A DNA stretch of 16,854 nucleotides from Hormiphora californensis. Its lineage: Eukaryota > Animalia > Ctenophora. Positions 910 to 15,680 of the stretch are shown in pieces; within the stretch, counting starts at the first letter, position 1, and every line of letters begins with the position of its first letter. The stretch covers positions 1 to 16,854 of the forward strand of contig WFME01000028.1 of NCBI GenBank assembly GCA_020137815.1, in the 5' to 3' direction. Made by a program: the position numbers and the translations under genes. The notes under the pieces were generated by a model. The model was not told where the DNA came from. It saw nothing but the letters and a program-made list of their open reading frames with translations, and ran no database searches.

Positions 910-1422
910 TCAATTTTTATACAGAAGATCCATATTACGAGAGTAGCTGGTGTTAGTGAAAACCGACTCATCTTGGTTTTCCAAATTCCATAGCTGCAGC
1001 TCGTTAACCATGTCTCTTGTTAACCGCCCGTTACCGTCAATAGAGCTCATCGCCCGATACGCCTTACAGTACCACTGTACGTACCTTTCCTAAAAAAATC
1101 CGTTTTAATTTTATTACAATTAAATGTCTCATGGATACCTCATGAAATCAACTAATATAAGGGAATCAATATACTTCGACGTGTCTGGTTAAAGTTTACC
1201 AGTTGCAGGAGGTACACTTCCGCTGCTGACCGGCAGTCGTTACTTTCTACAATCGCAGGGAGCTCGCTATTCAAAATGGTGAAAGACAGGACTGATTTCT
1301 CACTGTTCCGTCTTAACCCGTTGACTTCTTTTTGAATAATATCCGTCAGTCCAGTAGACCTTTTGTTTCCTGGGACATTATAACAGCTTATTAACTTATT
1401 CAGTATTACAGCGTACCTAACT

Positions 1423-1476
<54 letters not shown>

Positions 1477-1501
1477 CTCTCTCTCTCTCTCTCTCTCTCT
1501 C

Positions 1502-1598
<97 letters not shown>

Positions 1599-2431
1599 TT
1601 CTTTCATTCTCTCTTTCTCTCTTTATCCTCTTTCTCTCTCGAGATGTATCTATCTCTCTCTTTCTCTCTCTTTCTCTCTCTTCTCACTTTTGCTATTTGG
1701 TTTTGGTATATCGTCTTCACACATCTGCATTAATACTCCAATGTTCAACGCTTTCAGTAGATCGTCATAAAATAGTACACAACTGAAAGGGACACAGTTG
1801 ATAAGTTACGATTAAGATATATCATATAATTTAAATTATCGGCTCAAATTTGTAGTGGTAGTAAGCCTACTATAGTACATAATTGATAATTCTACAGCCG
1901 GTCCACGTTTTACCGGGAATCGGGATGGTCGAGGAAGGGTTTACCCAGTAAATCGGGGTGTCTGCAGGTATATTATATTGGGGCCAAATACTGTAAGTTT
2001 CATACATCGTGGGAAATGTATCCTCCCGGTAAATCGCGGGTCGGTAAATAAGGACCCGACTGTGTATATAATGTAGTTTATTATAAAGGTAAGTAAGTAC
2101 TGACCTGTCCTTTCGATTCCCTGCTCTGTTTACACGGACAATTTTGGGTTCCTTGATTATTGGTCTTTTTAGTTTGGTGTCCAACACTATTGATACAATA
2201 TCTTGCACAACTGTGGATATAAGTCGTTAGGTAATACGGTATTCTTCACCTCCTTCATTCATCTAATAAGGTATTCTTCAAGTCCTTCTATCATAACAGT
2301 AAATTCCACTCATACTTACTCTCGATATGACCCGTGGATTCGATAAGAGTCCCTGCCTTTTCATTAATATGAATTTTTCTTGATCCATTCACAACAATCA
2401 GTAAACACACAACACCCACCAGCGATAACAT
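910..2431 (-). CDS. Multi-exon envelope/F-like glycoprotein gene; exons 2431-2320, 2210-2105, 1782-1688, 1369-1200, 1089-910; probably continues, frameshifted, to about position 100
   Basis: Four GT-AG introns with matching phases (donors GTAAGT, GTCAGT, GTGAGA, GTAAAC; acceptors CCACAG with branch CCTAAC, TTTCAG, CCCAG, TTTTTAG). Joined 220 aa: MLSLVGVVCLLIVVNG-SRKIHINEKAGTLIESTGHIEIVQDIVSIVLDTKL...KDSCVLFYDDLLKALNIGVLMQMCEDDIPKPNSKRNKR-STGLTDIIQKEVNGLRRNSEKSVLSFTILNSELPAIVESNDCRSAAEVYLLQLERYVQWYCKAYRAMSSIDGNGRLTRDMVNELQLWNLENQDESVFTNTSYSRNMDLLYK. The F/Env family call is by motif resemblance only. Confidence 0.72.
1425..1686. repeat. (CT)n microsatellite inside predicted intron 3 (1370-1687) of the env-like gene
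   Basis: Near-pure (CT)n 1425-1594, then degenerate CT-rich sequence up to the GTGAGA donor. Confidence 0.97.
2232..2294. repeat. 31-bp imperfect tandem duplication within env-like intron 1
   Basis: TAATACGGTATTCTTCACCTCCTTCATTCAT versus TAATAAGGTATTCTTCAAGTCCTTCTATCAT. Confidence 0.8.
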
Positions 2432-2859: not shown

Positions 2860-3282
2860 ATGTTTTATTTTGCCACCTTCTTCCTGTTCTTCTTCCACTC
2901 CACTGCTACTGATAACATCCTTTGTCCGACTGTACACAACCTGAATTCTTCTCAAGAAATGCTGAAGCTGTTTGAGGATCGTTACCAGATCTGCGAGGAA
3001 GTTCTATCCTGCCAGCCATCTCCACCTGCTAAGACCCTGAACTCCTATGGAGAAGCAGTAATCATCACCTACAACAACTGTACTTCGACAACTCTTCCCC
3101 CGACCCAGCCACCTCCAGTTGATCACCCTGATTTACTCGACGGCCTAAAACCTATCCTTGCAATGATGGCTTCAGGAATTATCCTCATACCCATAGTTTT
3201 CTGCCTCAAATTCTTCATCTGCAACATGTTCGCGAGGACCGCTGTAAATCCTGCTCCCAGAACTCAAGAGGTTCCCGTTTGA
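2860..3282 (+). CDS. 140-aa intronless type I membrane glycoprotein of unknown family
   Basis: ATG at 2860 in good context (A at -3), about 35 nt after TATATAA. Signal peptide MFYFATFFLFFFHSTA; 4 ectodomain Cys; sequons NSS and NCT; Pro/Thr stalk; TM ILAMMASGIILIPIVFCLKFFIC; short tail; ATTAAA at 3373-3378. Confidence 0.75.
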   Translation: MFYFATFFLFFFHSTATDNILCPTVHNLNSSQEMLKLFEDRYQICEEVLSCQPSPPAKTLNSYGEAVIITYNNCTSTTLPPTQPPPVDHPDLLDGLKPILAMMASGIILIPIVFCLKFFICNMFARTAVNPAPRTQEVPV

Positions 3283-3879: not shown

Positions 3880-14292
<10,413 letters not shown>

Positions 14293-14687: not shown

Positions 14688-15680
14688 GAGATACGACGTT
14701 TTGTCTGGGCAATTACCCCCATAAATCTACTTTTCTTGACGGAATATGTCCATGAAAACTTTCTAGGACCAGCTGAAGTGGAAATATTCAGAATATGTAT
14801 AAAATTATGAATAGGTACATATTGACTATTCTGCATCGAAATATGTCTATGTAAACGTTATAGGACCAACCAAAGTGGAAAAATTCAGAATATGCATTAA
14901 ATCATGAATCGGCGCATAAATATGCAAATAACGGCTTAACAATGCGAGATACGACTTTTTGTCCGGGGGACGACCCCCCATAAATCGACTATTCTGCGTC
15001 GAAATATGTCCATGAAATTGTTCTAGGACCAGCTGAAGTGGAAATATTCAGAATATGCATTAAATCGTAAATCGGTGCATAAATATGCAAATAACGGCGA
15101 AACGGTACGAGATACGACTTTTTGTCCGGGGGACAACCCCCCATAAATCGACTATTCTGCGTCGAAATATGTCCATGAAATTGTTCTAGGACCAGCTGAA
15201 GTGGAAATATTCAGAATATGCATTAAATCGTAAATCGGTGCATAAATATGCAAATAACGGCGAAACGGTACGAGATACGACTTTTTGTCCGGGGGACAAC
15301 CCCCCATAAATCGACTATTCTGCGTCGAAATATGTCCATGAAAACATTCTAGGACCAGCTGAAGTGGAAATATTCAGAATATGCATTAAATCGTAAATCG
15401 GTGCATAAATATGCAAATAACGGCGAAACGGTACGAGATACGACTTTTTGTCCGGGGGACAACCCCCCATAAATCGACTATTCTGCTGAAATTTTTTCCA
15501 TGAAAACACCCAGGACCACTGAATGGAAATATTCAAAATATGCTTAAAATGTAAATCGGTGCATAAATTGCAAAAACGGCAAAAGGGTGCAAGATCCTTT
15601 TTTTGCCCGGGGGGGAACCCCCCTTAAAAAAATCGACTATTCTCGTCAAAATGTCCTTTAAAATTCCTTAAAAACCCCAA
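14688..15680. repeat. 163-bp tandem array, about 6 copies, diverged at both edges
   Basis: GAGATACGACTTTTTGTCCGGGGG recurs at 14946, 15109, 15272 and 15435 (163-bp spacing); partial copies at 14688 and 14824; degraded copy at ~15592; inverted partial copy at 15770-15810. Confidence 0.95.

Follow-up and report, generated by a model that had tools for sequence, protein, structure and literature searches.

A predicted five-exon gene with features of a viral class I F protein beside a Helitron2 transposase in the ctenophore Hormiphora californensis

When a gene resembling a viral envelope gene lies beside an intact rolling-circle transposase, it raises the question of what the gene encodes, whether its product could still fuse membranes, and whether it belongs to the transposon. 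We addressed this for positions 910-2431 of a 16,854-nt stretch of H. californensis DNA (the window), for which a preliminary description had proposed an unannotated five-exon F/Env-like glycoprotein gene with a furin site assembled across a splice junction. The reading that we favour, at a probability of somewhat more than one in three, is that the gene encodes an F derivative that has no fusion peptide but keeps a furin site, is carried as 3′ cargo by the neighbouring Helitron2, and acts as a non-fusing decoy. The parts of the proposed gene are as follows.

2320-2431, minus strand: exon 1, encoding a hydrophobic N-terminus whose residues 1-16 are a likely signal peptide, then the start of an F-like N-terminal strand
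2211-2319, minus strand: intron 1, 109 nt, phase 1, GTAAGT...CTAAC...CAG
2105-2210, minus strand: exon 2, from sequence inspection and codon score
1783-2104, minus strand: intron 2, 322 nt, phase 2, with a MITE-like insert at about 1895-2062
1688-1782, minus strand: exon 3, with Cys74 (candidate F2 cysteine), Cys94 and the first base of Arg105
1370-1687, minus strand: intron 3, 318 nt, phase 1, the larger part of it (1425-1685) made up of (AG)n
1200-1369, minus strand: exon 4, with the remainder of the RNKR site (1369-1359), a polar helix at the fusion-peptide position and Cys150
1090-1199, minus strand: intron 4, 110 nt, phase 0, 28% GC
910-1089, minus strand: readable part of exon 5, with a Fic-like IDGNGR lacking the catalytic His and a stop (910-912) adjoining a degraded zone

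The proposed splice model agrees with the sequence. Each of the four introns reads GT...AG on inspection, and with phases 1, 2, 1 and 0 they join the exons into 220 codons followed by TGA at 910-912. The motif RNKR falls at residues 105-108, its first arginine codon split A|GA by intron 3, and the N-terminal part holds two cysteines, at residues 74 and 94, as had been claimed. A signal peptide is also likely, to judge by hydropathy (1.9 over residues 1-18). Freedom from stops was rejected as evidence for the model, since 2,472,458 stop-free five-exon chains lead from the model's ATG to its stop when any GT and AG may serve as splice sites.

Rather, codon use, splice scores and profile continuity, all read from the DNA itself, single out the four junctions of the model. 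The model frame has the top codon score among six frames in 5/5 exons, although this score is noisy, with frames in intron 1 scoring equally high while containing stops. By a generic splice matrix, the model donors rank 7, 1, 13 and 8 among 97 GT dinucleotides and the acceptors 3, 1, 12 and 23 among 196 AG, so that intron 2 takes first place at both ends. For intron 3, the model's join has the highest splice score among 30 stop-free joins and, among the top 10, is the only one that creates the furin motif. By F-profile score, a partly circular measure here, the model's join is the best of 48 for intron 1 and the best of 65 for intron 4. Furthermore, the inserts in introns 2 and 3 (the former MITE-like, with inverted arms at 1898-1918 and 2024-2044 and imperfect inverted ends, the latter the (AG)n run) would not be tolerable in exons. 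We consider the five-exon gene very probably real. Within exon 5, a stronger unused donor at 1084 and an acceptor with a branch motif at 947 make alternative splicing possible. RNA data from one run of the same species were uninformative, with nothing aligned to 1-1410 or 4300-11000, and Rfam gave no match.

The 3′ end of the gene runs into poor sequence.

1-900, no strand: degraded, homopolymer-rich zone, same-neighbour ratio 1.25-1.60 versus 0.89-1.17 in the transposase

Adjacent identical bases occur in this zone at 1.25-1.60 times expectation, and beyond 15,300, in the right-hand flank, at up to 1.82 times, compared with 0.89-1.17 in the transposase. Both contig ends (1-900 and 15500-16854) are homopolymer-garbled, and features there are unreliable. 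A 163-nt repeat in five copies lies at 14824-15628, upstream of the transposase; its last copies decay along with sequence quality, the matches falling from 158 to 133 to 95 of 163 toward the right end.

The preliminary description had extended the protein to 'KIPL' and 'TLQFVP', the one part of its sequence-level account that did not survive: these motifs lie beyond the stop at 910, in two other frames and within the degraded zone (1 to about 900), and were rejected as evidence because they sit downstream of a stop in garbled sequence. As the stop borders the degraded zone and the motifs lie past it, neither they nor the length of 220 residues counts; the loss of quality at this contig end has probably set that length artificially. 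Frameshift-tolerant scans of 1-950 for F signal gave shuffle-level scores (22.0 versus 20.7 +/- 2.7; 15.9 versus 16.8 +/- 2.1). Scores for Cys-rich C-terminal domains, a second heptad repeat and a transmembrane anchor were likewise at shuffle level, and their expected site lies in or past the degraded zone.

One alternative is a decaying relic, an F gene left behind by a former DNA element and now without its fusion peptide, its 3′ half and any function. The stop at 910, the lack of F signal beyond it and the insertions in two introns fit this reading, but the frame is unbroken over 220 codons, all eight splice sites are intact, and sequence quality collapses just where the break lies, as it does again in the 163-nt repeats at the other contig end. 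We regard it as very unlikely.

To compare the joined protein with F proteins, we used sets of 45 baculovirus-type F proteins, granulovirus F loci and 40 paramyxovirus F proteins, the last being what was left of 46 loci after 3 had been dropped as short and another 3, on metagenome contigs, as chance matches. Pfam confirmation covers one member of each set, in the paramyxovirus set only L342. Two blocks stand out.

2170-2377, minus strand: block 1, residues 19-51, spanning intron 1, matching the N-terminal strand of baculovirus-type F
1078-1277, minus strand: block 2, residues 136-165, spanning intron 4, matching the F1 cysteine helix of paramyxovirus F

Block 1 has a z of 3.8, a fit reached by 7/1,646 real control pieces anywhere and by 0/1,646 within their first 50 residues. 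Its halves on either side of intron 1 each fit on their own, with 9/3,327 and 4/3,333 background windows as good. Block 2 has a z of 5.8 among 69 tiles, equalled by 4/600 shuffles and 9/1,646 real pieces, and its exon-4 side is matched by none of 3,320 background windows. On the same tiles this best paramyxovirus score exceeds that of all 24 true baculovirus-type F proteins (maximum 3.9). An ungapped match to paramyxovirus F over 96 columns also spans intron 4 and was reached by 0/500 shuffles and 0/800 real pieces. The two blocks are collinear with the furin site between them. Their pair score of 9.6, a statistic devised only after the blocks had been seen, was reached by none of 600 shuffles, 1,646 phage or bacterial pieces, 506 non-F viral pieces (maximum 9.4) and 672 Helitron-protein pieces, that is, by 0/3,424 control sequences.

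The remaining landmarks vary in strength. Cys150 lies in the strong block, in the context of the F1 cysteine; residues 67-90, around Cys74, fit the F2 cysteine block of paramyxovirus F weakly (46/3,322 background windows as good). RNKR, where cleavage is predicted, follows an F2-sized segment. Past residue 165, exon 5 fits F poorly: the strings 'GRLTRDMV' and 'DLLYK', which had been cited in support of an F origin, are present, but 337/3,309 background windows equal residues 166-202, so that they contribute little to the case. The likeness that had been drawn to baculovirus F and errantivirus Env thus holds as an F-type likeness at the level of blocks, with the stronger block pointing to paramyxovirus F and not to baculovirus F.

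Whole-protein comparisons gave no support. Against home-built F HMMs, a check proposed along with the original description, the joined protein came out negative: the baculovirus HMM gave no score, and the paramyxovirus HMM gave -0.2 bits, with 180/2,000 shuffles as good. Gapped profile alignments under six settings (37 to 943 of 1,000 shuffles as good) and hhalign (8/60 shuffles as good) were not significant. These HMM negatives are weak, because such profiles also miss true cross-family relatives: run against the PDB at E 10, the baculovirus profile misses paramyxovirus F, and no baculovirus F protein scores above 8 bits with the paramyxovirus HMM. At the exon level, Pfam, applied to single exons only, and NCBIfam returned nothing relevant. 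Exon 4 had no match in a search of 5.8 billion proteins, in the Atlas or in the PDB; exon 5 had 5 matches in the protein search, all repeat proteins, and only noise in the PDB.

Could the blocks be chance? A secreted proprotein that has a furin site but no kinship to F, and whose F-like blocks are a fortuitous amphipathic strand and helix, would account for every negative whole-protein test, and one non-F viral piece came close to the pair score (9.4 versus 9.6). Set against this are two ordered blocks at fitting places, together with the furin site and both cysteines, a pair score reached by 0/3,424 controls, and the weakness of the HMM tests noted above. In a variant of this reading, exon 5 would be a degenerate Fic-like domain: its best Atlas match is a Fic cluster (0.90, 173 shared features) and it contains IDGNGR. 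The Fic motif is HPFxxGNGR, with a catalytic His. An active Fic domain was rejected, as only IDGNGR is present and this His is absent, and neither Pfam nor NCBIfam gave a Fic match at E 10. We judge the unrelated proprotein, with its variant, to be improbable, and think it likely, from the two blocks and their order, that a viral F fusion protein of class I is the ancestor of this protein.

If so, the part that defines a fusogen appears to be missing. No hydrophobic fusion peptide was found directly after RNKR, where a polar helix stands instead. The 18 residues that follow the site have a hydropathy of -0.7 and no aromatic residue, compared with post-cleavage hydropathies of 0.17-1.05 and 2-7 aromatics in 20/24 of the F proteins parsed. 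From the cleavage site to the F1 cysteine there are 42 residues here, against 83 in 40/40 paramyxovirus F proteins and 67-72 in 23/24 of the baculovirus type, a shortfall of 25-41 residues. By comparison, the distance from Cys74 to the cleavage site is 35 residues versus 37-47 in the 40 paramyxovirus F proteins. Of the earlier interpretation, 'F/Env-like' can be kept and 'fusogen' cannot for the protein as assembled, which fails the defining test for a fusion peptide in hydropathy, aromatics and spacing. The fusion peptide is required for fusion (according to the parts of PMC1262188 consulted) and is conserved in errantivirus F Env (likewise for PMC13524379). With no hydrophobic peptide to insert, the protein could not fuse membranes, which makes a decoy more plausible than a fusogen.

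The peptide could instead have been lost from the assembly, through collapse at the AG run of intron 3, or be of an unusual kind, in which case a DNA element would here carry a functional F fusogen. The shortfall of 25-41 residues is the size of an exon, intron 3 is mostly microsatellite in a contig with quality faults, and a small membrane-protein ORF lies head-to-head with the gene. However, RNKR forms exactly at the junction, NKR continues into the polar helix inside exon 4 with no intron between, and the join at intron 3 tops 30 joins by splice score. We consider a working fusogen quite unlikely, and the fusion peptide, on the present assembly, is probably truly absent.

Whether the gene travels with the transposon turns on its neighbours.

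About 3880-14277/14370, minus strand: Helitron2 (HLE2) transposase ORF with DUF6570, Helitron_like_N, PIF1 and Peptidase_C48; intact, 10-kb
2860-3282, plus strand: divergent intronless ORF of 140 aa with a hydrophobic N-terminus, four Cys, a Pro/Thr stalk and a transmembrane-like helix
2550-2794, no strand: hairpin and repeat cluster between the F-like gene and the divergent ORF, a candidate for the 3′ stem-loop of the Helitron2 or else a small independent insertion

The transposase has all of its motifs (HUH, YxxKY, Walker A/B and the protease), and its closest relative, a Pleurobrachia bachei protein, is 77% identical over residues 1750-3346. According to the parts of PMC11417382 consulted, DUF6570 is a marker of the HLE2 group. 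The F-like gene and the transposase lie on the same strand, 1.5-2 kb apart, and share a GC3 of 0.45. The preliminary description had guessed at a DNA-replicated element, which fits a gene adjoined by an intact Helitron2 transposase; the four introns likewise imply long passage through DNA and not reverse transcription.

The transposase frame runs through (AG)n to a stop at 3880, similarity to the relative stops at 4411, and the 3′ end may be spliced. Within it are in-frame tandem repeats at 11108-11659 (78 nt x 7) and 13819-14097 (51 nt x 5.5); the Pleurobrachia relative shares the 17-residue repeat and has, in its middle region, a different repeat. The divergent ORF resembles a type I membrane protein and is head-to-head with the F-like gene; it has no Pfam or NCBIfam match, and its structure model is of low confidence (pLDDT 56). 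No exact terminal inverted repeat of at least 12 nt links the two flanks, which are degraded. No close Helitron loci were found in viral or metagenome contigs; among the 80 + 80 loci that profile scans gave, the 7 contigs inspected as Helitron-like are distant and short, and none showed a relative.

In the region 2550-2794 a single 16-nt motif, with 3 exact copies, recurs as a mosaic that forms a 36-bp hairpin and a 92-nt tandem. At 2550-2637 the hairpin has 36-nt arms at 94% and a fold z of -10.2. HLE2 elements have short inverted repeats at their ends, with a stem-loop on the 3′ side, as described in the parts of PMC11417382 consulted, so the hairpin at 2550 may be the Helitron end, in which case the gene would lie outside.

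On that account, the gene would be an ancient host domestication of an F-type env, non-fusing like Drosophila Iris, and a Helitron ending near the 2550 hairpin would have been inserted beside it. The F evidence and the absent fusion peptide are the same under this reading, and the four introns, with their microsatellite and MITE inserts, fit long residence in the genome. A strong hairpin does separate the two genes, as the stem-loop ends of HLE2 (PMC11417382, in part) would predict, and Iris too has no fusion peptide (PMC1262188, in part). Against it, no relative of exon 4 or 5 appears in protein collections that include Pleurobrachia gene models, a weak objection given such short queries, and Iris orthologues are intronless, with one intron in Iris-B only, as far as the parts of PMC1262188 consulted describe. 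It also seems unlikely that an intact Helitron would come to lie by chance next to a domesticated env, a rare kind of gene, which favours cargo. With the ends of the element not found, the domesticated host gene is the main rival, though an improbable one, and we lean, slightly, towards the F-like gene lying inside the Helitron.

As Helitron cargo, the F gene may have been acquired from the F-type env elements of ctenophores, where errantiviruses carry an F-type env in 6/9 entries (PMC13524379, in part). The protein would enter the secretory route and be cleaved at RNKR, leaving F2/F1-like halves that Cys74 and Cys150 might keep linked, as in F2 and F1. It would not insert into membranes, and could act as a decoy by occupying receptors. 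Alternatively, it might join and spoil the trimers of F-type envelopes made by host Ty3/gypsy elements. Either mode would be analogous to what has been proposed for Drosophila Iris. A bolder version, in which the intron-bearing class I F gene and the small membrane protein form an envelope module that lets the Helitron move between cells or hosts, seems a long shot; if true, Helitrons would have their own equivalent of env-bearing retrotransposons and fusogen-bearing Mavericks, overlooked so far because cargo scans use single ORFs.

DNA transposons with a fusogen are already known (Maverick MFUS-1, class III), as are fusion-dead env derivatives (Iris), from the parts of those reports consulted. 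We found no report of an F or env gene within a Helitron in full-text searches, as far as abstracts and passages of PMC6431247 and PMC13524379 go, and neither that literature nor the HELIANO cargo list yielded a four-intron relative of class I F next to a Helitron. That list would likely miss an intron-split gene, as the method, in the portions of PMC11417382 consulted, works on single ORFs. If the gene is cargo, it would link the pool of viral envelope genes with rolling-circle transposons and show that intron-split cargo escapes ORF-based surveys. If it is a host gene, it would represent an Iris-like domestication, with four introns gained, in one of the earliest-branching animal groups.

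Among known systems, HLE2/Helentron elements share with this locus a DUF6570-marked HLE2 transposase and a C48 protease, both known HLE domains; they differ in their cargo, for which no fusion or envelope family is named in the portions of the text and supplement of PMC11417382 consulted. Errantivirus F-type Env, compared by description, has the same signal peptide, F2-sized N-terminal part, furin site and F-like blocks, and is found in ctenophores (6/9 entries). Those genes are single ORFs beside gag-pol with a conserved fusion peptide (PMC13524379, in part), whereas the gene here has four introns and lacks a fusion peptide, and the window contains neither gag nor pol nor an LTR. Errantivirus membership was rejected, as the window has no gag-pol ORFs or long direct repeats.

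Paramyxovirus F (PF00523 Fusion_gly) shares the F1 cysteine-helix block, the F2 cysteine spacing and the ungapped register over 96 columns, but the protein here is 41 residues shorter from cleavage site to F1 cysteine and has no whole-protein HMM score. With baculovirus F (PF12259 Baculo_F) it shares the N-terminal strand at an equal position and an RxKR site; the fusion-peptide, HR1 and later blocks are unmatched, and there is no HMM score. Nematode Mavericks with MFUS-1 (bioRxiv 10.1101/2022.07.12.499685, in part) are likewise DNA transposons bearing a viral fusion-protein gene. Theirs, however, is a class III (gB-like) protein that has fusion loops, and their element also has capsid genes, for which the methods name queries, while the gene here is class I-like, beside a rolling-circle element in which no capsid gene was seen. 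Drosophila Iris, as the consulted parts of PMC1262188 describe it, has lost the furin site too, is intronless (one intron in Iris-B) and is associated with no DNA transposon, but it is env-derived and without a fusion peptide, as the protein described here would be, and it is the system for which a decoy or dominant-negative role has been proposed.
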